Shown: positions 4,889 through 45,627 of the stretch, one piece after another | Layout: each line of letters begins with the position of its first letter | Position numbering within the stretch: the first letter of the stretch is position 1 | DNA from: an uncultured Acidobacteriota bacterium | Lineage (GTDB): Bacteria; Acidobacteriota; Thermoanaerobaculia; Gp7-AA8 | DNA: 64,000 bases | Direction of reading: 5' to 3' | Assembly (NCBI GenBank): GCA_963822445.1 | Contig: CAWGHO010000002.1 | Span: 2,144,001 to 2,208,000, forward strand | The notes under the pieces: generated by a model | What the model saw: only the letters and a program-made list of their open reading frames with translations | Databases searched by the model: none | What the model was told of the DNA's origin: nothing | Program-made: the position numbers and the translations under genes

Positions 4889-5076
4889 GCCTAACTACTG
4901 CCAGAAGCTGGCGGCGGGCCGTTTTCCGCGCTCGGCGGCCGAGCCGCCTACCGGGTCCCGAGATGCGCGGCGTCACGCCGCTTGCAACCGCGTAAACGTC
5001 AAATGCGGCAAGCGGCGTGCCGCTCCTCCCGCTCGCACGTGGGGCCTCGCCGCAGCTTAGGCGATAGACGTTAGCC
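4889..5076 (+). repeat. attC site 5
   Basis: GCCTAAC...GTTAGCC. Confidence 0.9.
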
Positions 5077-5260
5077 GGACCGAAGCGATGCGTGGTTGAA
5101 GCGAACAATAGACCGGCGTATTCGTGCGATGCTGCAGTGCACGCTGGCCTGCTCCGGTTCGACCGCAGTGTTATCTTCGTTACGACCGACCGTGAGCAAA
5201 CATCCAGTCGCGAACGAGCAGGAGATTTCTTTGCCGACATGGCACCTCAGGAAGTGGCAT

Positions 5261-5923
5261 GTGCCGTCGTGGTGGATCACCGGTTTGGTGCTTCTCCTGT
5301 GTGTCGCGCAGCCGTTGCAAGCGTGCTCTTGCGGTGACCGCCCAAAGGCCGCGAAGGTCTTGTCATCTCACGCTGTATTTGACGGGACGGTCGTGTCCTC
5401 TCGACCCTTCATCGATCGATCAGACGACTACTGGTACGTGCTCGAGGAATGGACGTTTCAGGTGCATAGGAGTTGGACACAAGGAGTCCAAGGCGATGTC
5501 GCTATTCGTGCCTATCCGCATAACTGTGGCGTCTGGTTTGAGAACGGTGAGCGCGCAATTGTTGTCGCTGTCAATCGCGAAAGGCGCACACTCGGTGCGT
5601 TCAAGTGTGCCTATCCTCGCGAGAATGTTGACGTGTTGAACGCGGACCGTCTGTAGGGGCCGGCTTCGTTCCGCACCGACGGCCCGGTACGGAAAAGGAG
5701 AATCGCGCGTATCGTTAATGTGGCTCGGCGCTTGGTTCTTCACCTCATCGCGGATATCCACAACTGGATCGTTCGCTCCGGTCTTCGTGGCCGCGGCTAC
5801 GGCACTGTCATTGCTTGGGCGATAGCGACATGCGTGCTCTTCGCTATCTTGGTCGTCATTCTATCGTTTCGGCGACTGCGAGGTCGCGACAAGAATGAGC
5901 CGCCTTCCATGGCAGCCGGCTAA
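5261..5923 (+). pseudogene. TIMP/NTR-like secreted membrane-anchored protein interrupted by an in-frame TAG (5654-5656)
   Basis: Signal peptide, then 'ACSC...AVFDGTVV...CGVWF'; the same frame continues after the TAG to a C-terminal TM helix and stops in R''. Confidence 0.6.
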
Positions 5924-6117
5924 CTACTGCCAGGAGCTGTCGGCGGGCCGTTCGCCGCGCCCGGCGCTGAAGCGCCTCGTTCAGCGTGGACTGGCCGGCG
6001 GCACGCCGGCCGACATGCTCTCGCGCCGCTCGTCGCGGCGCGAACACTGCAGCCGTCGCGCCGCGTGACCCGCTCGCATGCGGGGCCTCGCCGCAGCTCA
6101 GGCGATAGACGTTAGGC
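5918..6117 (+). repeat. attC site 6
   Basis: GGCTAAC...GTTAGGC. Confidence 0.9.
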
Positions 6118-10933: not shown

Positions 10934-11130
10934 GCCTAACTACTGCCAGAAGCTGGCACGGCCCGGCTTCGGTCCGGCGGCCGAGCCGCCTATATCGTCG
11001 TAGTTTGGGCGGCGTCACGCTGGTTGCAATTCGCCAGTCGCGGCTGCGCAACTCCTCGGCGGCAACCGGCGCGCCGCTCTCCGTCTCCACGTGGGCCCTG
11101 GCCGTGCAGCTTAGGCGATAGACGTTGGGC
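10934..11130 (+). repeat. attC site 10
   Basis: GCCTAAC...GTTGGGC. Confidence 0.9.
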
Positions 11131-11421
11131 GGACTCGGCACGAAGAGGTAGGCCCGACTTCCATTTACGCGTTGGCAGTCGCACCGACCGAAGCGGCGGA
11201 GCCGCGCGCCAAGGCGTCCGCCACAATTGTTCGTCGTGGTACCCGCCCATCCGCCGGCTCGTCCCACGTGCAGCGCGCGCGAAACACATTCTTTCGTAGG
11301 CCGGTCGCAATCGCCGCGATTGCCGCGATCCCCGCCGGCCTGTCGGCCGAGCACGCATTCCGCGTCCGTCACCATTCGGCGCGCGCGCTGCTCCCAAGTG
11401 CGCAAAGTTATGCGTGTGGCC
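11131..11421. repeat. Gene-less cassette family, copy 1 (candidate ncRNA or structured DNA)
   Basis: ~290 bp, 10 related copies, no reading frame conserved across copies; appears identical to 38145-38435. Confidence 0.85.
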
Positions 11422-11611
11422 GCCCAACAACTCACAGCAGCTGTCGCGGCCCGGCTTCGGCTCGGCGGCCGAGCCGCCTAGGCCGAACAGTACCGGCGCG
11501 GCGTCACGCCGGCTGCAGTTCGGTTCATTCGTTAATCGCCGGCAGCCGGCGCGCCGCGCTGCCGTAGCCACGCGGGCCCTGGCCGCGCAGCTGAGTGAGA
11601 TGACGTTGGGC
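11422..11611 (+). repeat. attC site 11 (subtype of gene-less cassettes)
   Basis: GCCCAACAACTCACAGCAGCTG...CAGCTGAGTGAGATGACGTTGGGC. Confidence 0.9.
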
Positions 11612-11943
11612 GGACGAAACTCCATCGTTGCCAGCGTCGGAATACCTATGAACGTAGATGGACCGTTGTCGGATCATGCTCGCTCAACGCATGGCTGTTC
11701 TAGCCGTGAGGCGGTCGATCATGGATCCGCCTCGCGCGGCCGTTTTCGAGCGGCGACGGCGCGGTGTGGTTGAGCGGTTCTGTCGTCGATCCTCGGCGCT
11801 ATTCGCAAAGGATTCGATGTGCGTGTCGAACCTTGCCTGCCAGTCGGGGTCAGTCCTGAAGGTGACCAAGTAGACGCTCATCCGTTCCGACTTGCTCGCC
11901 CAGGAAGCGCCGTGCGCCGGTTGGCGTTAGAATGTCGAGCGAC

Positions 11944-12162
11944 ATGCGAATAGCATCAGGAAAAGTAATCCACGGTCAGATCGTTTACGAAGGTGAATTG
12001 CCTGAGGGCGCAGAGGTTACGCTCCTTGCGCACGACCTTGAGGACACTTTCGAGGTCAGTCCCGAACTCAAGGCGGTCCTTCTCGAATCGATTGCCCAGT
12101 GCGAGCGTGGGGAAACTATTTCAGCTGACGAGCTCATTCGGGAGATGCTCAGTCGCGAATGA
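11944..12162 (+). CDS. Putative antitoxin
   Basis: 'GKVIHGQIV...LPEGAEVTL...ESIAQCERGETIS'; overlaps the RelE/ParE gene. Confidence 0.8.
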   Translation: MRIASGKVIHGQIVYEGELPEGAEVTLLAHDLEDTFEVSPELKAVLLESIAQCERGETISADELIREMLSRE

Positions 12163-12470
12163 GGGCTCCGCTTCAAGTTGAAATCAGCGAGCTCGCAGCT
12201 CAGCACATTCGGGAACTGGAATCATGGTGGCGGCTAAACCGCACGGCTGCGCCCAACGCAGTTCGAGAGGAGCTTCAGCGTGTTTTGCGGCTCATCACGT
12301 TGACGCCGCTCATTGGTCGCCGAGCGACAGACGTCGATCTTGAGAACGTTCGCCGCATCCACATTTCGAGAATTTGGCACTTCCTCTACTACCGCGTCGT
12401 TGACGATCCTGAGCGTATTGAACTTGTTGCGCTCTGGTCCGACAGTCGCGGCGAAGGGCCACCGATTTGA
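12159..12470 (+). CDS. RelE/ParE family toxin
   Basis: 'VEISELAAQHI...P.IGR...VRR...FLYYRV...IELVALW'. Confidence 0.85.
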   Translation: MRAPLQVEISELAAQHIRELESWWRLNRTAAPNAVREELQRVLRLITLTPLIGRRATDVDLENVRRIHISRIWHFLYYRVVDDPERIELVALWSDSRGEGPPI

Positions 12471-18098: not shown

Positions 18099-18297
18099 GC
18101 CCAACTACTGCCAGGAGCTGTCGGCGGGCCGTTTGCCGCGCCCGGCGCTGAAGCGCCTCGGCCGGTGTCGATTGGCCGGCGGCACGCCGGCCGACATGCT
18201 CTCGCGCCGCTGATCGCGGCGCGAACACTGCAGCCGTCGCGCCGCGCAACCGCACGCGCGTGGGGCCTCGCCGCAGCTCAGGCGATAGACGTTGGGC
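18099..18297 (+). repeat. attC site 16
   Basis: GCCCAAC...GTTGGGC. Confidence 0.9.
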
Positions 18298-18589
18298 GGA
18301 CTCGGCACTGCATCAGCGTAGGACGGACATCCATTTACGCGTTGGCAGTCGCACCGGCCGAAGCGGCAGAGCCGCGCGCCAAGGCGTCCGGCACAATTTT
18401 AGTCGTGGTACCCACCCTTCCCGCCGGCTTGTCGCACGTGCAGCGCGCGCGGACGCACGATTCGCGTAGCGAGTGACTACAGTAACTCAAGACGCAGCGG
18501 CAAAGCGGGCCTTCGGCCACGCGCGCTCCGCGCCATGCACCATTCGGCGCGCGCGCTGCTTCCAAGCGCGCAAAGTCATGCGTGTGGCC
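18298..18589. repeat. Gene-less cassette family, copy 2
   Basis: Homologous to 11131-11421; subtype B interior. Confidence 0.85.
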
Positions 18590-18778
18590 GCCCAACAACT
18601 CACAGCAGCTGTCGCGGCCCGGCTTCGGCCCGGCGCTGAAGCGCCTGGGCCGAACAGTACCGGCGCGGCGGCACGCCGGCCGCAATTCGGTTCATTCGTT
18701 AATCGCCGGCAGCCGGCGCGCCGCGCTGCCGTAACCACGTGGGCCCTGCCCGCGCAGCTGAGTGAGATGACGTTAGCC
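18590..18778 (+). repeat. attC site 17 (gene-less subtype)
   Basis: GCCCAAC...GTTAGCC. Confidence 0.9.
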
Positions 18779-22587: not shown

Positions 22588-22777
22588 CTACTGCCAGCAG
22601 CGGACGGCGGGCCGTTCGTTGGCCCGGCGGCCGAGCCGCCTCCAGCACTCAAAGCCGCACGGCGTCACGCCGCCTGCAGCTCGCGCCCGCCGAGAGCTCG
22701 TTAGTTGCGGCAAGCGGCGCGCCGCTTCCTGCTAGGCACTCGGGGCCTCGCCGCCGCTGAGGCGATAGACGTTGGGC
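22582..22777 (+). repeat. attC site 20
   Basis: GGCTAAC...GTTGGGC, L boxes CAGCGG/CCGCTG. Confidence 0.9.
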
Positions 22778-23067
22778 GGACTCCGCACGAAGACGTAGGC
22801 CCGACTTCTATTTTCGCGCTGGCAGTCGCACCGACTGAAGCGGCAGAGCCGCGCGCCAAGGCGTCCGCCACAATTGTCCGTCGTGGCTCCCGCCCGTCCA
22901 CCGGCTTGTCGCGCCTGCAGCGCGCGCGAAGCTGATTTTTCGTGGGTTTGTCGCAATCTCCGCGAAAGTCACCATCCAAGCCGGCCTGTCGGCCGAGCAC
23001 GCATTCCGCGTCCATCACCATTCGGCGCGCGCGCTGCTCCCAAGCGCAGAAGCTTATGCGTGTGGCC
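22778..23067. repeat. Gene-less cassette family, copy 3
   Basis: Homologous to copy 1. Confidence 0.85.
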
Positions 23068-23257
23068 GCCCAACAACTCACAGCAGCTGTCGCGGCCCGG
23101 CTTCGGCCCGGCGGCCTAGCCGCCTAGGCCGAACAGTACCGGCGCGGCGTCACGCCGGCTGCAGTTCGGTTCGTTCGCTAATCGCCGGCAGCCGGCGCGC
23201 CGCCCTGCCGTAGCCACGCGGGCCCTGGCCGCGCAGCTGAGTGAGATGACGTTGGGC
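23068..23257 (+). repeat. attC site 21 (gene-less subtype)
   Basis: GCCCAAC...GTTGGGC. Confidence 0.9.
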
Positions 23258-28569: not shown

Positions 28570-28762
28570 CTACTGCCAGGAGCTGTCGGCGGGCCGTTCG
28601 CCGCGCCCGGCGCTGAAGCGCCTCGTTCAGCGCTGATTGGCCGGCGGCACGCCGGCCGACACGCTCTCGCGCCGCTGGTCGCGGCGCGAACACGGCAGCC
28701 GTCGCGCCGCGCAACCGCACGCACGCGGGGCCTCGCCGCAGCTCAGGCGATAGACGTTGGGC
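28564..28762 (+). repeat. attC site 25
   Basis: GGCTAAC...GTTGGGC. Confidence 0.9.
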
Positions 28763-29051
28763 GGACCCGGCACGAAGAGGTAGGCCCGACTTCCATTTAC
28801 GCGTTGGCAATCGCACCGACTGAAGCGGCGGAGCCGCGCGCCAAGGCGTCCGCCACCATTTTTCGTCGTGGTACCCGCCCGCCCGCCGGCTTGTCGCACT
28901 TGCAGCGCGCGCGGAGCAGCGATTTGCGTAGGCCGGTGCCCACAAAACTCGAGACGCAACGACGTAGCGGGCCTTCGGCCACGCGCGCTCCGCGTCGTGC
29001 ACTATTCGGCGCGCGCGCTGCTCCCAAGCGCGCAAAGTTGTGCGTCTGGCC
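28763..29051. repeat. Gene-less cassette family, copy 4
   Basis: Subtype B interior. Confidence 0.85.
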
Positions 29052-29240
29052 GCCCAACAACTCACAGCAGCTGACGCGGCCCGGCTTCGGCCCGGCGCTG
29101 AAGCGCCTTGGCCGAACAGTACCGGCGCGGCGGCACGCCGGCCGCAAATCGGTTCATTCGTTAATCGCCGGCAGCCGGCGCGCCGCGCTGCCATAGCCGC
29201 GCGGGCCCTGGCCGCGCAGCTGAGTGAGATGACGTTAGGC
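29052..29240 (+). repeat. attC site 26 (gene-less subtype)
   Basis: GCCCAAC...GTTAGGC. Confidence 0.9.
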
Positions 29241-33490: not shown

Positions 33491-33679
33491 GCCGAACTAC
33501 TGCCAGAAGCTGGCAGCGGGCCGTTTGCCGCGCCCGCCGGCCGAGCCGGCTCGGTCGATCGAAGACGCACGGCGTCACGCCGCGTGCATCCGCGTCAAAC
33601 GGCAGTCGGCAGCACGCGGCGTGCCGCATCGCCGCACGCACGTGGGGCCTCGCTGCAGCTTAGGCGATAGACGTTGGGC
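33491..33679 (+). repeat. attC site 30
   Basis: GCCGAAC...GTTGGGC. Confidence 0.9.
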
Positions 33680-33970
33680 GGACCCGGCACGAAGACGTAG
33701 GCCCGACTTCCATTTTCGCGCTGGCAGTCGCACCGACTGAAGCGGCAGAGCCGCGCGCCAAGGCGTCCGCCACAATCGTTCGTCGTGGTACCCGCCCGGC
33801 CGCCGGCTTGTCGCAAGTGCAGCGCGCGAAACATGGTTCTCGTCGGCAGCCGGCCACAATCGCCTCAAGAGCCAAAATCCACGCCGGCCTGTCGGCCGAG
33901 CACGCGTTCCGCGTCCCTCACCATTGGGCGCGCGCGCTGCTCCCAAGCGCGCAAAGTTTTGCGTGTGGCC
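33680..33970. repeat. Gene-less cassette family, copy 5
   Basis: Homologous to copy 1. Confidence 0.85.
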
Positions 33971-34160
33971 GCCCAACAACTCACAGCAGCTGTCGCGGCC
34001 CGGCTTCGGCCCGGCGGCCGAGCCGCCTGGGCCGAACAGTACCGGCGCGGCGTCACGCCGGCTGCAGATCGGTTCGTTCGTTAATCGCCGGCAGCCGGCG
34101 TGCCGCGCTGCAGTAGCCACGCGGGCCCTGGCCGCGCAACTGAGTGAGATGACGTTGGGC
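33971..34160 (+). repeat. attC site 31 (gene-less subtype)
   Basis: GCCCAAC...GTTGGGC. Confidence 0.9.
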
Positions 34161-34452
34161 GGACTCGGCACGAATAGGTAGGCCGGACTTCTATTACGCG
34201 TTGGCAGACGCACCGACTGAAGCGGCGGAGCCGCGCGCCAAGGCGTCCGCCACAATCGTTCGTCGTGGCTCCCGCCCGTCCGCCGGCTCGTCGCACGTGC
34301 AGCGCGCGCGAAGCATGATTCTCGTAGGCAGCCGGCCATAATCTCCGCGAGATCCAAGATCCGAGCCGGCCTTGCGGCCGAGCACGCGTTCCGCGTCCGC
34401 CATCATTCGGCGCGCGCGCTGCTCCCAAGCCCGGAAGGTCATGCGTGTGGCC
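34161..34452. repeat. Gene-less cassette family, copy 6
   Basis: Tandem with copy 5 but not identical. Confidence 0.85.
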
Positions 34453-34642
34453 GCCCAACAACTCACAGCAGCTGTCGCGGCCCGGCTTCGGCCCGGCGCT
34501 GAAGCGCCTAGGCCGAACAGTACCGGCGCGGCGGCACGCCGGGCCGCAAATCGGTTCATTCGTTAATCGCCGGCAGCCGGCGCGCCGCGCTGCCGTAGCC
34601 GCGTGGGCCCTGGCCGCGCAGCTGAGTGAGATGACGTTAGGC
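34453..34642 (+). repeat. attC site 32 (gene-less subtype)
   Basis: GCCCAAC...GTTAGGC. Confidence 0.9.
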
Positions 34643-34670
34643 TGATATCCCGAGATTCACGGTCGAGCTA

Positions 34671-35231
34671 TCAACGTTCATCGCCCAGTGATCGCAGCGC
34701 GAGGGGTCGTAGCGCCTGGAGTAAGTCGTCAGCTGAGTAGGCGCGTCCGGCCGTGACGCCTCTGGGGGCCGGAGCCATCGGGATGATTAGGTCATCCGTC
34801 TCGGAGTGAAGCCACAACGCCACCACGTACACAGCCGGAATCTTCAGAAGGCGAAGCTCAAAGTCTCCTCGTTGGACCTCATCCAACGCTTCTGCTGTAG
34901 TCAGCGCCTCTATAGTTGCTTGTACAAAGGGTCCATCGTTGACTTCAGAAAACGCAAGCCCACCATCTCCCTTGTCGCTAAGCTCGGCTGCCGAAACCGC
35001 GGCCTCCTGCGTGACGAGCAGGTATCGCCACGCAACCGGAACGGCAGTCGACAGCAGAACGTCCCGGAGAATTGCTTCGCGCCCGATCGTGTAAACTCGA
35101 TGAGGTTGTGTAACGTATTGAGGAGTCGAATCTGCCGCAGCCGAAAAGCGACCTCGTGAAGTGGTTCCGAAGCCGTGCTGGCTGAGTAGCTCCCGGCCCG
35201 GCGTCGGCGGTGGTGGTAAGTGTATCGGCAT
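34671..35231 (-). CDS. Hypothetical partner protein of the cysteine protease
   Basis: AGGAG RBS; 'FELRLLKIPAVYVVALWL'; 11 nt downstream of the protease gene. Confidence 0.75.
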   Translation of the reverse strand: MPIHLPPPPTPGRELLSQHGFGTTSRGRFSAAADSTPQYVTQPHRVYTIGREAILRDVLLSTAVPVAWRYLLVTQEAAVSAAELSDKGDGGLAFSEVNDGPFVQATIEALTTAEALDEVQRGDFELRLLKIPAVYVVALWLHSETDDLIIPMAPAPRGVTAGRAYSADDLLQALRPLALRSLGDER

Positions 35232-35242
35232 GCTGGCTCCTT

Positions 35243-35860
35243 CTACTTTCGCACGGACCGTCGTTTAGTCGAGGCGTCGGGAGGTGCCGGTTGCGTTTCA
35301 TAGGCATGAGTCCACGTTCCGGTGCCTTGATACGCGTTCCGAAAAACGTCCGCGCTGACGATCGAATCGCCATACCAAGGGTCTTTCAATATGAAAGACG
35401 CTTTACCGTAATCGTAGCCCGTGATCACGACAAAGTGGCCCCCGCCTCCGCTCCAACCCACACGTGCACCTATCGGCCGGTTGTCGTCAATCTCCCGCAC
35501 AACTTCCTCAAACGCCTTCGCCTCATGAACAAACCGTTTGAGGTTCCCCGTCAAAGCTAGAACGGAATCCAGATACCACCAGCGGTTGCATTCAGGGCGC
35601 TCCGGATCGGAACAGCAGTCGGTCCGCTGGAGGGCAGCGTTCGCGATGACGCACTGGCTGGTCCACTTGGTAGCCGAATCGTAAAATTGGGCAACGCTTC
35701 GCGCGACAGCTGCCCAGCACCACTGGTCATACTGCTGACGTTCGCCTACGTACCGCACTATTTCGCGCGACCTCTCTGCCTCCGCAGACATCGTAGAGAT
35801 GCGGCGAGGAGTGGGCACCAGCGGTTCGAGGCCGACCTGAAGAACGGAAGGAAGAGGCAT
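35243..35860 (-). CDS. Papain-like (C39/AvrRpt2-like) cysteine protease
   Basis: 'QQYDQWCWAA' (Q/C), 'GHFVVITGY' (H), 'DPW' (D). Confidence 0.85.
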   Translation of the reverse strand: MPLPSVLQVGLEPLVPTPRRISTMSAEAERSREIVRYVGERQQYDQWCWAAVARSVAQFYDSATKWTSQCVIANAALQRTDCCSDPERPECNRWWYLDSVLALTGNLKRFVHEAKAFEEVVREIDDNRPIGARVGWSGGGGHFVVITGYDYGKASFILKDPWYGDSIVSADVFRNAYQGTGTWTHAYETQPAPPDASTKRRSVRK

Positions 35861-35902
35861 ACGTAAGTTCCTGCACCATTTTACGAGACTCTGGAGCGGA
35901 CA

Positions 35903-36089
35903 GCCTAACTACTGCCCGCAGCTGTCAGCGGCCCGTTTGCCGCGCCCGGGGCTGAAGCCCCTCGATCCTACCAAGGCGCACGGCGGCACGCCGCTCGCAG
36001 ATCGGTCGACGTCAATCGCGGCGAGCGGCGCGCCGCTCTGCCCGCGCGCGCATGGGGGCTCGCTGCAGCTGAGGCGACAGACGTTAGGC
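35903..36089 (+). repeat. attC site 33
   Basis: GCCTAAC...GTTAGGC. Confidence 0.9.
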
Positions 36090-36371
36090 GCACGAATCAC
36101 ATTTTCCGTATCCGCGCGCTTTCCATGAACCGCGTACCGGGACGGTCAGCGCCTGGCCGAATCGTCGCCCCAGGAGCGTCCGTTCGATGTATGCGAGCAT
36201 TCAGCTTTCCGCGGCGTTACGGTTGCAGCGGTCGCATTTTGAACGGTCACGATATCATCGGTGCATCGACTCGCGACACGTTGTACTACGCTGTGGGAGT
36301 TGCAGGTCGGGCGAGATGCCCCTTCGCGTTGCCGGTGGTTCGCCGGCAGAAGACCGGGGCGTGGAGGTCGG

Positions 36372-36989
36372 ATGGCCGTAGACCCGAAGGTTAAGGCTTT
36401 AGGCGAACGATTGCTCGCCTTCATGGCGGAGTTTCGTGCTGAAACGGATCGGGCGGCAGCAATTGTCGGTGCGGCCAAGCTTGACTACCTTCTTTATCAG
36501 CTACTCAGTAAATTTCTGCTTCCGCCCACATCAAACAACGACGATTTTCTCGAGGGCGATGCACCTCTCTCGACATTCAGCGCGCGCATTCATGCATGCT
36601 TTCGACTCGGTCTGATTGACGCGCAGTTTGCCAGAGCACTGCACATGATTCGACGCTTACGGAACACATTTGCGCATGAGCCATCCAGCTGCTCATTTCA
36701 ATCGGGTCCACATCACGATCGAGTTCGCGAACTTGTCAATCCGTTCGCGAATAACCCAGGATTTCTGGATATGCGCACCGTGTTCGCTCACGACAAGCCC
36801 GGCGCGGCAGGCTACTTCTACACCATTCTTGGCATATTGATCGTTGGACTAGAAGCGAAGATCGACGAAGTCGTAATGTTGAAGCCGGGTGAGCCCCGTC
36901 AGGTGATTCCTTCATCCTACACGGAGCGTTCACTGGATCGCGACGCCGACGGCAAGCTGGTCAATCTCAAGAAATCCGACGGCGCCTAA
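36372..36989 (+). CDS. MtlR/DUF4145-like (HEPN fold) protein
   Basis: GGAGG RBS; 'ETDRAAAIVGAA.LD...PLSTFSARI...LRNTFAH'. Confidence 0.8.
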   Translation: MAVDPKVKALGERLLAFMAEFRAETDRAAAIVGAAKLDYLLYQLLSKFLLPPTSNNDDFLEGDAPLSTFSARIHACFRLGLIDAQFARALHMIRRLRNTFAHEPSSCSFQSGPHHDRVRELVNPFANNPGFLDMRTVFAHDKPGAAGYFYTILGILIVGLEAKIDEVVMLKPGEPRQVIPSSYTERSLDRDADGKLVNLKKSDGA

Positions 36990-37183
36990 CTACTGCCAGG
37001 AGCTGTCGGCGGGCCGTTTGCCGCGCCCGGCGCTGAAGCGCCTCGTTCAGCGTCGAATGGCCGGCGGCACGCCGGCCGACATGCTCTCGCGCCGCTGATC
37101 GCGGCGCGACTCACTGCAGCCGTCGCGCCGCGCCGCCGCACGCACGTGGGGCCTCGCCGCAGCTCAGGCGATAGACGTTGGGC
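36984..37183 (+). repeat. attC site 34
   Basis: GCCTAAC...GTTGGGC. Confidence 0.9.
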
Positions 37184-37477
37184 GGACTCGGCACGAAGAA
37201 GGTAGGCCCGACTTCCATTTACGCGTTGACAGTCGCACCGACCGAAGCGGCGGAGCCGCACGCCAAGGCGTCGGCCACAATTTTTCGTCGTGGCACCCGC
37301 CCGCCCGCCGGCTTGTCGCACGTGCAGCGCGCGCGAAGCATGATTTTCGTCGCCAGCCGGCCACAACATCCTCGAGACGCATCAGCGAGGCCGGCCTGTC
37401 GGCCGAGCACGCATTCCGCGTCCGGCACCATTTGGCGCGCGCGCTGCTCCCAAGCGCGCAAGGTTATGGGTGTGGCC
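37184..37477. repeat. Gene-less cassette family, copy 7
   Basis: First of three tandem copies. Confidence 0.85.
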
Positions 37478-37666
37478 GCCCAACAACTCACAGCAGCTGT
37501 CGCGGCCCGGCTTCGTCCCGGCGCTGAAGCGCCTGGGCCGAACAGTACCGGCGCGGCGGCACGCCGGCCGCAATTCGGTTCATTCGTTAATCGCCGGCGG
37601 CCGGCGCGCCGCGCTGCCGCAGCCACGCGGGCCCCGGCCGCGCAGCTGAGTGAGATGACGTTGGGC
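37478..37666 (+). repeat. attC site 35 (gene-less subtype)
   Basis: GCCCAAC...GTTGGGC. Confidence 0.9.
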
Positions 37667-37954
37667 GGACCCGGCACGAAGACGTAGGCCCGACTTCTAT
37701 TTTCGCGTTGGCAATCGCACCGACTGAAGCGGCGGAGCCGCGCGCCAAGGCGTCCGCCCCAATTCTGGTCGTGGCACCCGCCCGTCCGCCGGCTTGTCGC
37801 ACGTGCAGCGCGCGCGAGGCGTGGTTTTGCGTAGGCCGGTGACCACAAACCTCGAGACGCAGCGACGAAGCGGGCCTTCGGCCACGCGCGCTCCGCGTCA
37901 TGCACGATCGGGCGCGCGCGCTGCTCCCAAGCGCGGAAAGTTATGCGTGTGGCC
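37667..37954. repeat. Gene-less cassette family, copy 8
   Basis: Subtype B interior. Confidence 0.85.
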
Positions 37955-38144
37955 GCCCAACAACTCACAGCAGCTGACGCGGCCCGGCTTCGGCCCGGCG
38001 GCCGAGCCGCCTAGGCCGAACAGTACCGGCGCGGCGGCACGCCGGCCGCAAATCGGTTCATTCGTTAATCGCCGGCAGCCGGCGCGCCGCGCTGCCGCAG
38101 TCGCGTGGGCCTTGGCCGCGCAGCTGAGTGAGATGACGTTGGGC
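37955..38144 (+). repeat. attC site 36 (gene-less subtype)
   Basis: GCCCAAC...GTTGGGC. Confidence 0.9.
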
Positions 38145-38435
38145 GGACTCGGCACGAAGAGGTAGGCCCGACTTCCATTTACGCGTTGGCAGTCGCACCG
38201 ACCGAAGCGGCGGAGCCGCGCGCCAAGGCGTCCGCCACAATTGTTCGTCGTGGTACCCGCCCATCCGCCGGCTCGTCCCACGTGCAGCGCGCGCGAAACA
38301 CATTCTTTCGTAGGCCGGTCGCAATCGCCGCGATTGCCGCGATCCCCGCCGGCCTGTCGGCCGAGCACGCATTCCGCGTCCGTCACCATTCGGCGCGCGC
38401 GCTGCTCCCAAGTGCGCAAAGTTATGCGTGTGGCC
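38145..38435. repeat. Gene-less cassette family, copy 9
   Basis: Appears identical to 11131-11421. Confidence 0.85.
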
Positions 38436-38625
38436 GCCCAACAACTCACAGCAGCTGTCGCGGCCCGGCTTCGGCTCGGCGGCCGAGCCGCCTAGGCCGA
38501 ACAGTACCGGCGCGGCGTCACGCCGGCTGCAGTTCGGTTCATTCGTTAATCGCCGGCAGCCGGCGCGCCGCGCTGCCGTAGCCACGCGGGCCCTGGCCGC
38601 GCAGCTGAGTGAGATGACGTTAGGC
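38436..38625 (+). repeat. attC site 37 (gene-less subtype)
   Basis: GCCCAAC...GTTAGGC. Confidence 0.9.
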
Positions 38626-38681
38626 TGAACGCTCCAAGAGCGCACACCTCTCTCGACCTCACGATCTATTAAGCTGAGCCA

Positions 38682-39539
38682 ATGGATGAACGAAGCCTGC
38701 GCGACGCACTCTTTCAAAGTACGGTTCGTATCGTAGTGACCAGTCGCCGCGAGGGCTCAACCATTCGACTCGTCGATCCACCCGAGGTGGCCACGGGCTT
38801 TCTGCTGCAACCCCCGACGCGAGTGGTCGCGAAGCCTCAGATATTCGTCGTCACCGCCGCGCATGTTGTTGAAGATGCGGAGGATGCGAGCATTTACTTC
38901 TTTCGGAGGGTACCTGGGCCTGACGGATCTAGACTGTTCGAATTCAGACGGAAGGCTTTCTTCGGAGAACTCTGGCATTACTCGACCGACAGAGAACTAG
39001 ACATCGCCGTTACGCCAGTCGCACCCAGTAGTGAAATCGCCAGCGCCGTTCAAGACGTGCAGGCGCAGCTTACGGCTTTCATGTTGTACGACGGCCGATT
39101 AGACTCGCACGGACATCCATTCAAAACGCACGACTTTGAAGAGGTGTTATTTGCAGGCTACCCCCGAGGATATTGGGATCCTTTGTCCGGCTCACCGATC
39201 GTCAGGCGTGGCGTGACAGCGACGCCGCTTAGCGTGGACTACCATGGCGCCCCAGCATTCCTGGTCGACGGGGCGGTGTACCCCGGCTGCAGCGGCGGAC
39301 CGGTGGTGGTCATTGAGCAAGAAGTCATTGTGCCATTCGGCCTACCTGTCGAATGGATCGAATATCAGACAATCCGGCTTGAGGAGCGGTTCAGGTTTCT
39401 GGGCATGATCACGCACGTTCAGCATGAGCAAGGCAATCCCCACGCGCTCCTTAATCTGGGTCGTGCGATCAAGGCGGACGCAATCTTCAGCACGATCCGC
39501 CACTATACGCAGCTCACAGATAGCCGAGGGTCAGCCTAA
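38682..39539 (+). CDS. Trypsin-like serine protease (no signal peptide)
   Basis: 'VTAAHVV' (H), 'LDIAV' (D), 'PGCSGGP' (S). Confidence 0.85.
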   Translation: MDERSLRDALFQSTVRIVVTSRREGSTIRLVDPPEVATGFLLQPPTRVVAKPQIFVVTAAHVVEDAEDASIYFFRRVPGPDGSRLFEFRRKAFFGELWHYSTDRELDIAVTPVAPSSEIASAVQDVQAQLTAFMLYDGRLDSHGHPFKTHDFEEVLFAGYPRGYWDPLSGSPIVRRGVTATPLSVDYHGAPAFLVDGAVYPGCSGGPVVVIEQEVIVPFGLPVEWIEYQTIRLEERFRFLGMITHVQHEQGNPHALLNLGRAIKADAIFSTIRHYTQLTDSRGSA

Positions 39540-42742: not shown

Positions 42743-42934
42743 CTACTGCCAGGAGCTGTCGCGGCCCGGCTTCGGTCCGCCGGCCGAGCCGGCTGCTTTT
42801 TCGCCAGCGTGACGGCGTCACGGCGTTGCAGTTCGCCACTCGCTGCATGGGCAGTTCATTGGCGGCAACTGCCGCGCCGCTCCGGCTTCGGCACGTGGGC
42901 CCTGGCCGCGCAGCTCAGGCGATAGACGTTGGGC
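42737..42934 (+). repeat. attC site 40
   Basis: GCCTAAC...GTTGGGC. Confidence 0.9.
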
Positions 42935-43226
42935 GGACTCGGCACGAAGAGTAGGCCGGACTTCCATTGACGCGTTGGCAGTCGCACCGACTGAAGCGGC
43001 AGAGCCGCGCGCCAAGGCGTCCGCCACAATTGTTCGTCGTGGTTCCCGCCCATCCGCCGGCTTGTTGCACGTGCAGCGCACGCGAAACATGATTTTCGTC
43101 GGCAGCCGGCCACAATCTCCGCGAGAGCCACCCTCCACGCCGGCCTGGCGGCCGAGCACGCATTCCGCGTCCGCCACGATTCGGCGCGTGCGCTGCTCCC
43201 AAGCGCGGAAAGCTATGCGTGTGGCC
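42935..43226. repeat. Gene-less cassette family, copy 10
   Basis: Compensatory change GCAGCGCACGC/GCGTGCGCTGC in the clamp stem. Confidence 0.85.
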
Positions 43227-43415
43227 GCCCAACAACTCACAGCAGCTGACGCGGCCCGGCTTCGTCCCGGCGCTGAAGCGCCTGGGCCGAACAGTACCGG
43301 CGCGGCGGCACGCCGGCCGCAGATCGGTTCATTCGTTAATCGCCGGCGGCCGGCGCGCCGCGCTGCCGCAGCCACGCGGGCCCTGGCCGCGCAGCTGAGT
43401 GAGATGACGTTAGCC
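43227..43415 (+). repeat. attC site 41 (gene-less subtype)
   Basis: GCCCAAC...GTTAGCC. Confidence 0.9.
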
Positions 43416-44314: not shown

Positions 44315-44509
44315 GGCTAACTACTGCCAGAAGCTGGCACGGCCCGGCTTCGGCCCGGCGGCCGAGCCGCCTACAGCATCGCAGCGTGACGGCGTCACGG
44401 CGGTTGCAGTTCGGCAGTCGTTGCTGCAACTTCTCGCCGGCAACCGCCGTGCCGCTCGGGCTTCGGCACGCGGGCCCTGGCCGTGCAGCTTAGGCGATAG
44501 ACGTTAGCC
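44315..44509 (+). repeat. attC site 42
   Basis: GGCTAAC...GTTAGCC. Confidence 0.9.
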
Positions 44510-44682
44510 AGACCGGCGGACGCGGAGCGCAACCGACGCACAAGTTCGCGGAACGCAACCACAGCGCGCGTGGCATGATCGATCGCAACTGCTCACTATC
44601 GTTGCGCTCCACCAGTCCACCGGCATGGCTAACTTTCATCATTCCGTCGTCGCGACGTCCGGTCGATCCCATAATAGACATT

Positions 44683-45007
44683 CCCCCTGCAGCTGACAGC
44701 ATCGCAAGATTGCGGGCCGCGACCAGCCAAAGTGCGCCCGCCCCCCGCGCCGTTGTGCAGTAGACCCCTTCACACCCGCTCCACCACCCGCGGTAGGCCT
44801 ACTGCACAACGGCGCACCCTCCCGGGCGCCAGCTCGTCGCGGCCCTGAATGTGCGCATCCACCCGACCTCGCGCGTCGAACTCACGAATTGATCCGTGTC
44901 ACGCGGTTGCAGATGGCTTCCTCCGGCGAATCATCAGTCGCCGCAACCGCGTGCCACGGGAAGACCGTGAATTCGACGCGCTCACACCCGGGAGATCGCT
45001 GCCCCCC
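44683..45007. repeat. Structured cassette-leader element, copy 5
   Basis: 20-bp stem with one mismatch around the conserved loop. Confidence 0.8.
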
Positions 45008-45097
45008 GACCCGCGAGAGCGACACGTCGTGATCAGGCCCGATGTGTCGGCGTGATCTAGATGCTCCAGGTTGTAAACCACCAGTTTCGGTATGAAC

Positions 45098-45421
45098 TTA
45101 GACATTCGCGGGGCGCAAAACCACCAGTTCGGTCACTCCGGAAGTGACCTTTGCCAATTCGGAAGTGACCTTTGCCACTTCGGAAGTGACCTTTGCCACT
45201 TCGGAAGTGACCCTTGCCACTTCGGAAGTGACTTGGGCCACTTCGGAAGTGACCTTTGCCAATTCGGAAGTGACTTGGGCCACTTCGGAAGTGACCTTTG
45301 CCACTTCGGAAGTGACCTTGGCCACTTCGGAAGTGACCACGGCCACTTCGCTAGTGACCTTGGCCACTTCGGAAGTGACCTTGCATTCAACTCTGAGACC
45401 GACGACGGACATGCCGCGCAT
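45098..45421 (-). CDS. Heptad-repeat (VTSEVAK)n coiled-coil peptide
   Basis: Repeat variation is mostly synonymous or conservative in this frame (TCC>AGC Ser, GCA/GCC Ala). Confidence 0.55.
   Translation of the reverse strand: MRGMSVVGLRVECKVTSEVAKVTSEVAVVTSEVAKVTSEVAKVTSEVAQVTSELAKVTSEVAQVTSEVARVTSEVAKVTSEVAKVTSELAKVTSGVTELVVLRPANV
45137..45385. repeat. Tandem repeat, 12 x 21 bp (TTCGGAAGTGACCTTTGCCAC)
   Basis: Units start every 21 nt from 45137 to 45368. Confidence 0.95.
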
Positions 45422-45430
45422 TGAATGGCT

Positions 45431-45627
45431 GGCTAACTGCTGCCAGCAGCTGACAGCGGCCCGTTTGCCGCTCCCGGGGCTGAAGCCCCTTTTTCCTCCC
45501 GAGACGAACGGCGACATGCCGCTTGCAGATCGCTCCCGCCGACTGGTCGTTAGTCGCGGCAACCGGCCTGCCGCGCGAACCGCACGCGCGCGGGGGCTCG
45601 CTGCAGCTGAGGCGACGTACGTTAGGC
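45431..45627 (+). repeat. attC site 43
   Basis: GGCTAAC...GTTAGGC. Confidence 0.9.

Follow-up and report, generated by a model that had tools for sequence, protein, structure and literature searches.

A 64,000-nucleotide stretch of DNA from an uncultured Acidobacteriota bacterium (assembly GCA_963822445.1, contig CAWGHO010000002.1, positions 2,144,001 to 2,208,000; hereafter the window) carries ten copies of a family of gene-less integron cassettes, of which the genome holds 12, all within one integron array. We favour the reading, and give it about an even chance, that this family is a non-coding passenger cassette which is copied by the integron integrase, shuffled by recombination and equipped with a small hairpin domain that is constrained in single-stranded form. 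Positions are given within the window unless prefixed C2, which denotes contig coordinates, and copies c1 to c10 are those in the window.

The array adjoins an intact integrase gene, intI (C2:2118113-2119048), a 321-amino-acid open frame that scores 456 bits against TIGR02249 (cut-off 265), and runs from C2:2120747 to 2226587, about 107 kb, through junctions of the form ...AC|GTTRRRY. According to a crude junction finder, the source of all array cassette and junction counts given here, the whole array comprises 77 cassettes with a median length of 1151 bp, and 52 of the junctions fall in the window. The original prediction, made from the window sequence, had counted ten family members among 54 cassettes there; the ten copies stand, and the junction finder gives 52 junctions instead of 54. 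With 12 of the 77 cassettes, the family is the array's largest paralogue group. The other groups have four, two and two members with 99-100% identity over their BLAST-aligned parts, and the family is the only old paralogue group in the array. We also tried these smaller groups as further cassette-precise duplications and rejected them, since the ungapped comparison failed through indels or partial sharing.

Measured from junction to junction, the family units are 478-483 bp long; by the junction finder their lengths are 474-484 bp, which makes them the 12 shortest cassettes of the array. Each consists of a content of 302-308 nt, counted from R' to R'' with both 7-nt boxes included, and an attC of about 190 nt. 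Junctions and segment identity place the window copies, all on the + strand, as follows (G of the G|TT crossover; cassette; core subtype): c1 (11124; 11125-11605, starting with the TT of the G|TT before it and closing with the G in its R'; A), c2 (18291; 18292-18772; B), c3 (22771; 22772-23251; A), c4 (28756; 28757-29234; B), c5 (33673; 33674-34154; A, with c6 directly 3'), c6 (34154; 34155-34636; A), c7 (37177; 37178-37660; A, the first of a run of three), c8 (37660; 37661-38138; B), c9 (38138; 38139-38619; A) and c10 (42928; 42929-43409; A). Two further copies lie downstream, beyond the window, at C2:2214984 and C2:2222790. The ten positions predicted originally correspond to the crossover G plus 7, and the predicted length of 288-294 bp fits a content of 302-308 nt once the latter is understood to include both boxes.

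All 12 copies open with TTGGGC, the R' half that travels with the cassette and matches its own R'' GCCCAAC, and the 3' junction of a family copy bears the TTGGGC, TTAGGC or TTAGCC of the next cassette. The longer opening GTTGGGCGGAC, an 11-mer, is an extended R' half-site that pairs with the family R'' GCCCAAC. It has 13 exact matches on the + strand, ten in family copies and three in other cassettes (11605, 16783 and 23251), so the shared opening proposed originally is present in every family copy of the window but fails as a mark of the family.

Three parts make up the content: a sequence-conserved leader, about 120 nt closed off by the clamp and containing small hairpins, and a short tail. 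In c1 the leader and 5' 'scaffold' span 11125-11269 on the + strand, of which the first six nucleotides are the TTGGGC of its own R' half. The 12-nt 5' clamp arm GCAGCGCGCGCG (11270-11281) is 100% complementary to the 3' arm CGCGCGCGCTGC (11380-11391), and the two enclose a variable core of subtype A (11282-11379, delimited by comparing segments among copies). Folding of this core gives two hairpins, Ha (11334-11352), with a 7-bp stem, one bulged base and the loop TGTC in + strand terms (GACA in - strand terms), and Hb (11353-11365, ACGC-loop-GCGT). The tail between clamp and attC (11392-11421, + strand) has a column identity of 0.89, and the attC (11422-11611, + strand; R'' GCCCAAC ... R' GTTGGGC), delimited by attC comparison and its bottom-strand fold, contains the spacer stem CTCAC/GTGAG. 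Across the genome the variable cores are 93, 95, 96, 97 or 99 nt long and fall into subtypes A (8 copies) and B (4 copies), in agreement with the predicted core of roughly 100 nt in two subtypes.

Direct support for copying comes from c1 and c9, which agree at all 481 positions between their two crossover points (481 of 481) and have unrelated flanks. The identity begins and ends within the ACGTT of both crossover sites. Such exact, cassette-bounded identity indicates integrase-mediated excision and reinsertion; homologous exchange between attC repeats would rarely yield it. Judged by their sequence, the family copies are true integron cassettes that appear to move as units, and the integron integrase would copy and move them whole. 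This finding favours one of the two alternatives put forward in the original prediction, a mini-cassette amplified by the integrase; the other, a structured non-coding RNA (ncRNA) with a guide-like core, is weakly supported by the data below. We also noted one unrelated cassette present twice, at 5070-6110 and at C2:2223274-2224313 (about 94% identity in ungapped comparison, 99% by BLAST), once directly 3' of family copy c11 and once after an unrelated cassette. Its occurrence in these two contexts indicates that family copies and their neighbours move independently.

In the runs c5-c6 and c7-c8-c9, neighbours are not the copies most closely related to one another, which argues that runs of copies are not tandem duplications, and the three adjacent pairs are no excess over chance (permutation P = 0.23). 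Family copies occupy slots 20-74 of the 77, with 10 of 12 in slots 20-50 and none in the 19 slots nearest intI (P = 0.024, post hoc). If cassettes enter at the integrase end, this post hoc pattern suggests a past period in which the family was very common in the incoming pool. We considered a dispersed repeat of the miniature inverted-repeat transposable element or repetitive extragenic palindromic type, with the clamp arms as terminal repeats, and rejected it since all 12 copies sit at cassette junctions. Clamp-like inverted pairs occur 11 times elsewhere in the genome, about the number expected from a rough chance estimate based on motif density, and no clamp-bounded family was found outside the array.

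The family carries its own attC variant, as had been predicted. We could delimit 73 of the 77 attCs (no R'' was found for the remaining four), and the signature AACTCAC...GAGTGAGATGAC occurs in 12 of 12 family attCs and in none of the 61 others; the same 12/12 and 0/61 apply to the spacer stem CTCAC/GTGAG. Spacer stems covary among attC types (CTCAC/GTGAG versus CTGCC/GGCGA versus TTGGTGTG/CACACCAA), and because other cassettes thus have covarying stems of their own, a private attC variant is normal cassette biology and no special device. Folded with DNA parameters, the bottom strand of the family attC pairs its R boxes (mean pairing probability 0.76), spacer stem and L boxes, with single unpaired bases in between. 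Predicted bottom-strand stability is -0.377 ± 0.014 kcal/mol per nt for the family (n=12) versus -0.330 ± 0.030 for other attCs (n=60). The family attC is therefore a functional-looking variant that is predicted to be slightly more stable. The bottom strand, the one that integrases recombine, is the - strand of the window. We rejected the idea that the content derives from or masks its own attC, given that local alignments of content to attC in both orientations score 22-26 against a null of about 20 ± 3; the partial complementarities that do appear are GC-rich. Comparison of the content with the attI/intI region reached a score of 34 at best, where the null maximum is 33, and so gives no convincing similarity.

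The copies have exchanged segments with one another. All four combinations of core type (A or B) with attC inner module are present, and four-gamete pairs occur within the first 30 nt. These mosaic combinations, which are observed directly, indicate frequent exchange between copies, and this exchange may explain part of the uniformity of the flanks; homologous recombination between copies would be what reshuffles the modules. Pairwise identity is 80-97% over the first 150 nt and 90-96% over tail plus attC. In the core it is 72-89% within a subtype (100% for c1/c9) and 46-66% between A and B. Conservation does not simply grade from the two ends inwards: it is highest in columns 81-100 (0.98) and in the 3' clamp arm (0.985), next to the columns that vary most (0.61-0.67).

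This pattern bears on whether the family is a neutral relic, an old and possibly once coding cassette whose flanks stay alike through conversion seeded in attC homology while the core has drifted, with nothing selected. Frequent exchange, seen as fine-scale mosaicism, is what such a relic would show, as is the Shine-Dalgarno-like GAAGAGG that lies, by our reading of the sequence, at the site usual in other cassettes with no start codon after it; moreover, for the closest pairs within a subtype, divergence of the core exceeds that of the leader by a factor of only about 1.5-2. However, a relic would not readily account for a profile that has no end gradient and reaches 0.98 and 0.985 in its interior, for a compensatory change in the clamp, for a hairpin whose stem is invariant while its loop varies, or for the absence of similarity to any protein family in Pfam. 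We regard a neutral relic as distinctly improbable.

We then consider coding potential. At 68% G+C every copy contains open reading frames (ORFs) of 59-135 amino acids, and stop-free stretches reach 186 amino acids when flanks are included; at this composition chance alone is expected to leave long frames open. In six-frame comparison the copies disagree: where one has an open frame, others have it closed or shifted. The leader contains 1-nt indels and core lengths differ by non-multiples of three, bearing out the predicted disruption of reading frames by indels. Variable columns display no codon 3-periodicity in four gap-free blocks (6/7/4, 7/6/7, 7/5/4 and 4/4/4), no ORF with the same stop is common to more than 7 of the 11 distinct copies (and its start positions vary), and ten open frames have no credible Pfam match (best E 0.21). 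The content appears, on these grounds, to encode no protein. A small protein or type I toxin-like peptide hidden among GC-rich open frames could point for support to the start-codon frames of up to 135 amino acids in single copies, to the stop-free stretches of up to 186 with flanks, and to a minus-strand frame that ends at one TAA in 7 of the 11 distinct copies. Against it, starts vary, 1-nt indels and cores of 93-99 nt break the frames, neither codon periodicity nor a Pfam match was detected, and no hydrophobic peptide is conserved. This peptide is already largely refuted, and we consider it very improbable.

Within the content, signs of constraint are confined to the clamp and the hairpin Ha. 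The clamp, GCAGCGCGCGCG/CGCGCGCGCTGC, makes 12 perfect pairs in c1 and is kept in all copies, even between cores of no more than 46-66% identity, with a double change from G-C to A-T in c10 and a single mismatch in c11. The original description of a clamp in all ten window copies, with a double change in the tenth, thus holds at 12 pairs in c1. In the ten of 12 copies that were folded, the clamp-core segment is more stable than its dinucleotide shuffles (z -1.4 to -4.3 on the + strand and -1.1 to -3.6 on the - strand). Subtypes A and B share the bulged design of Ha, whose 7-bp stem has its bulge near the foot, and one C-G to G-C swap sets them apart; the apical stem of Ha is in the minimum-energy fold of 12/12 copies. 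The seven distinct A-type copies have no change in the Ha stem, and the three differences among them within Ha are all at the two middle bases of the loop; by our own post hoc estimate, the chance of three hits all falling on 2 of 19 positions is about 0.001. The clamp and Ha both look constrained in these alignments.

On the + strand the resulting A-type loops are TGTC, TTGC, TGGC and TGAC; read on the - strand they fit GNNA (GACA, GCAA, GCCA and GUCA). d(cGNNAg) is a class of stable DNA tetraloop; the loop argument is not counted as evidence. The B-type Ha loop reads GAA on the - strand with a C:G closing pair, and PMC3201870 describes d(GNA) triloops closed in this way as very stable in DNA. 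At most, these loop patterns hint at a role of the hairpins in the - strand, whether DNA or RNA.

Such constraint would also be expected of a structured ncRNA family acting in trans or in cis, in which a conserved scaffold presents a fast-evolving, clamp-closed core that recognises different targets. We consider this possible but unlikely. Beyond the constrained clamp and Ha, it would fit a core that is two to three times more diverged than its flanks with sharp edges at the clamp (column identity 0.61-0.79 versus 0.93-0.98), the retention of G and A in the - strand Ha loops GACA, GCAA, GCCA and GUCA, and the precedent of a small RNA (sRNA) encoded by an integron cassette in Xanthomonas, as reviewed in PMC8876359. 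The scaffold speaks against this reading. Compared with dinucleotide shuffles of the 11 distinct copies, the leader and 5' scaffold have no excess stability (mean z -0.06 on + and +0.37 on -), nor does the whole content (z -0.57 on + and -0.11 on -). The multibranch structure predicted originally for the 5' part can be drawn, but it is no better than in shuffles and has no consistent covariation.

Covariation is likewise marginal. RNAalifold gives a covariation term of about 0 for either strand. Among the 11 distinct sequences, all from one genome, double changes affect 4 of 70 pairs on the + strand, where 22 of 500 shuffles do as well, and 4 of 79 on the - strand, where 53 of 500 do, so the covariation check proposed originally yields four pairs per strand and no clear excess. 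Cells with double changes on the + strand do exceed all 500 shuffles, a point in favour of RNA, but related sequences can exceed them without any structure. Strand preference is no more consistent: in the three-way junction single-sided changes mostly favour the - strand, and the next hairpin has G.T on the + strand in 7 of 11 copies (A.C on -). Because the G.U versus A.C asymmetries point to different strands depending on the helix, no consistent functional strand emerges, and the strand signals conflict between helices.

Searches for a known RNA or a target were negative too. At gathering score Rfam has no match in the window; at E up to 1 it gives two weak matches (E 0.16-0.57), both inside attC and at chance level. 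The cores match their own genome over 15-21 nt only (best E 0.002) and match nothing in phage and plasmid records, where, as in the genome, short seed pairings lie beyond the reach of the search. The originally suggested comparison of variable cores with phage, plasmid and host sequences therefore produced no target. In 33500-38800, which contains five copies, we found no sigma-70-type promoter, a weak negative because the scanned consensus may not fit this phylum, and three terminator-like sites, which is below the mean of 4.4 in shuffles, with no site recurring at the same place between copies. An ncRNA would thus have neither a sigma-70-like promoter nor a consistent terminator in the scanned stretch. 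No RNA run proved to contain the organism; in run X24, contigs cover only attC parts of the stretch and the organism is not shown to be present, which makes X24 uninformative on transcription.

A bolder variant, a mobile modular ncRNA or functional single-stranded DNA element, would have leader and 12-bp clamp present an exchangeable cartridge of about 95 nt, through which each copy could bind its own nucleic acid or protein partner, and so form a cassette-borne library of guides or decoys; we regard this as a long shot.

The same promoter and terminator scans weigh on the proposal that the family is regulatory DNA, a mobile promoter, insulator or terminator that would drive or separate blocks of expression, given that the 107-kb array is longer than the integron promoter could serve by itself. 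The spread of copies over slots 20-74 of 77 suits this proposal, as does a leader conserved without structure, as a protein-binding site would be. There is precedent both for ORF-less promoter cassettes in Treponema (PMC6557892) and for intra-array promoters in Vibrio (PMC2945992). The longest ORF is on the + strand in 8 of the 9 cassettes that follow a family copy or run, but this is not different from the array-wide proportion of about 69% (45/65). Moreover, the scan of 33500-38800 found 0 sigma-70-type sites and a below-shuffle number of terminator-like sites at unshared positions (promoters of this phylum may, again, differ from the consensus), and the three consecutive copies at 37178-38619 make little sense for a promoter. 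We think a regulatory role improbable.

The family's distribution is narrow. A DNA search found the content in 0 of 100 relatives, with only 30-49-nt matches (E 8e-5 to 1e-3) in five of them; a covariance model of the leader found 0 of 150 relatives, and a DNA search of the same taxonomic family found 0 of 123 other genomes. The attC type, as opposed to the content, is present at about 70-80% identity in 47 of 100 genomes of the same taxonomic family, and 29 attC-bearing loci of related genomes contain no content-like sequence. These relative and attC counts include genomes flagged as unpublished (G057 and G002), on which no positive claim rests. Exact-pattern scans of genome, metagenome and viral contig collections returned 0 matches. 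Soil-metagenome contigs (runs X1, X2 and X4) do carry family-related fragments at about 88-95% identity and low depth: one (run X4, record 27) covers 34151-34402 with 27 substitutions and nine gaps, those listed lying mostly in the core, and others span the core-to-attC part. These contigs indicate that the family exists outside this genome. The attC parts at 33970-34100 and 34465-34630 match soil metagenome and metatranscriptome contigs at 85-99% identity with high summed depth, which indicates that the attC type is common in soils; the matching contigs often run into unrelated sequence or span content with other letters.

Taken with these data, the favoured reading of an integrase-copied passenger cassette would work as follows. 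The hairpin domain would form when the cassette is single-stranded, as the recombining bottom strand or as a transcript, and the family would most likely persist as an integron passenger, small, well folded and once abundant among the cassettes locally available, rather than as a host regulator. We infer a role for the structure in single-stranded DNA, to the benefit of the spread of the cassette itself. Several points weigh against this. The leader is 80-97% conserved with neither detectable structure nor coding, and a purely selfish element has no obvious need of it, although gene conversion among copies could be the cause. A mini-cassette reduced to its attC would be a leaner parasite, and that 300 nt of content have been kept hints at a function. 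'Selfish' would be the reading by default, and the family attC leads in stability by about 1.5 standard deviations. The results are also compatible with transcription. Finally, copies are 10-20% diverged and may have been acquired one by one from the pool rather than amplified in place.

Other features of the array deserve description. The intI gene and the cassettes are on the same strand, with the 3' end of intI towards the array; in the classical integron layout the integrase gene and the cassettes are divergent. Array attCs are long (187-201 nt in 72 of the 73 delimited) and have a branched, multi-hairpin centre. Examples are those at 10935-11130 and 11422-11611, and several subtypes can be told apart by covarying R-L spacer stems. 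The inner attC modules GGCCGAGCC and GCTGAAGC are each found in common across unrelated cassettes. The cassette after c1 (11932-12470) has two overlapping small ORFs, of 76 and 103 amino acids, with an antitoxin-toxin-like look; the second is, we presume by eye, ParE/RelE-like. Many array cassettes of about 1000-1100 bp have short ORFs only and may be similar antitoxin-toxin pairs. Within the cassette at 44503-45621 lies a tandem array (45134-45382) of 11.9 copies of the 21-nt unit CACTTCGGAAGTGACCTTTGC with 87% matches.

Why large chromosomal integrons abound in repeated gene-less cassettes has been a question since such cassettes were described in Vibrio. The present family offers handles for experiment: an identical pair that dates a recent integrase event, a family-specific attC variant and a few constrained hairpins open to mutation. 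Should the content turn out to act as an RNA or to help recombination, integrons would be seen to spread more than genes.

Among known systems, sRNA-Xcc1 of Xanthomonas campestris (Chen et al. 2011, as cited in section 2.4.3 of PMC8876359) is likewise an ORF-less integron cassette, and its product, according to that section, is an RNA. The family differs from sRNA-Xcc1 as that section presents it in being multi-copy and diversified, and it has no match in Rfam, including any Xanthomonas sRNA family held there. In oral Treponema, cassettes that lack an ORF but act as promoters (Tansirichaiya et al. 2019, PMC6557892; summarised in PMC8876359) also lie in arrays and, like them, the family could feed transcription into its neighbours. 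Unlike the Treponema cassettes, whose sigma-70-like promoters work in E. coli, the five family copies scanned have no such promoter that we could detect.

The closest likeness is to the non-coding, highly paralogous and lineage-restricted cassettes of Vibrio, for which Boucher et al. (2006, PMC1382264) proposed that they are selfish elements or helpers such as promoters. As described there, the Vibrio cassettes resemble ours in being gene-less with a normal attC and the most paralogous in their array, in full-length conservation within a narrow lineage, and in absence outside it with no pseudogene signal. Of the features by which that text recognises such cassettes, the lack of any ORF longer than 150 bp does not literally apply here because 68% G+C leaves frames open. 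Its confirmatory feature is present, namely full-length conservation with no synonymous-site pattern (no 3-periodicity, and frames that are not shared), and so is paralogy, with 12 copies in the genome, 0/150 and 0/123 elsewhere, and soil fragments at about 88-95%. The family differs from the Vibrio cassettes of that account in its phylum (a soil Acidobacteriota), in an attC type of about 190-200 nt with a branched centre, and in a modular content with a clamp-closed core in two deep subtypes. The question of selfish element versus helper is the same in both, and the family is a further example of the paralogous non-coding cassettes of Boucher et al. (2006), not a novel type of system. That the syndrome recurs in a remote soil phylum, on a different and far longer attC, makes it look general to large integrons and not a Vibrio oddity.

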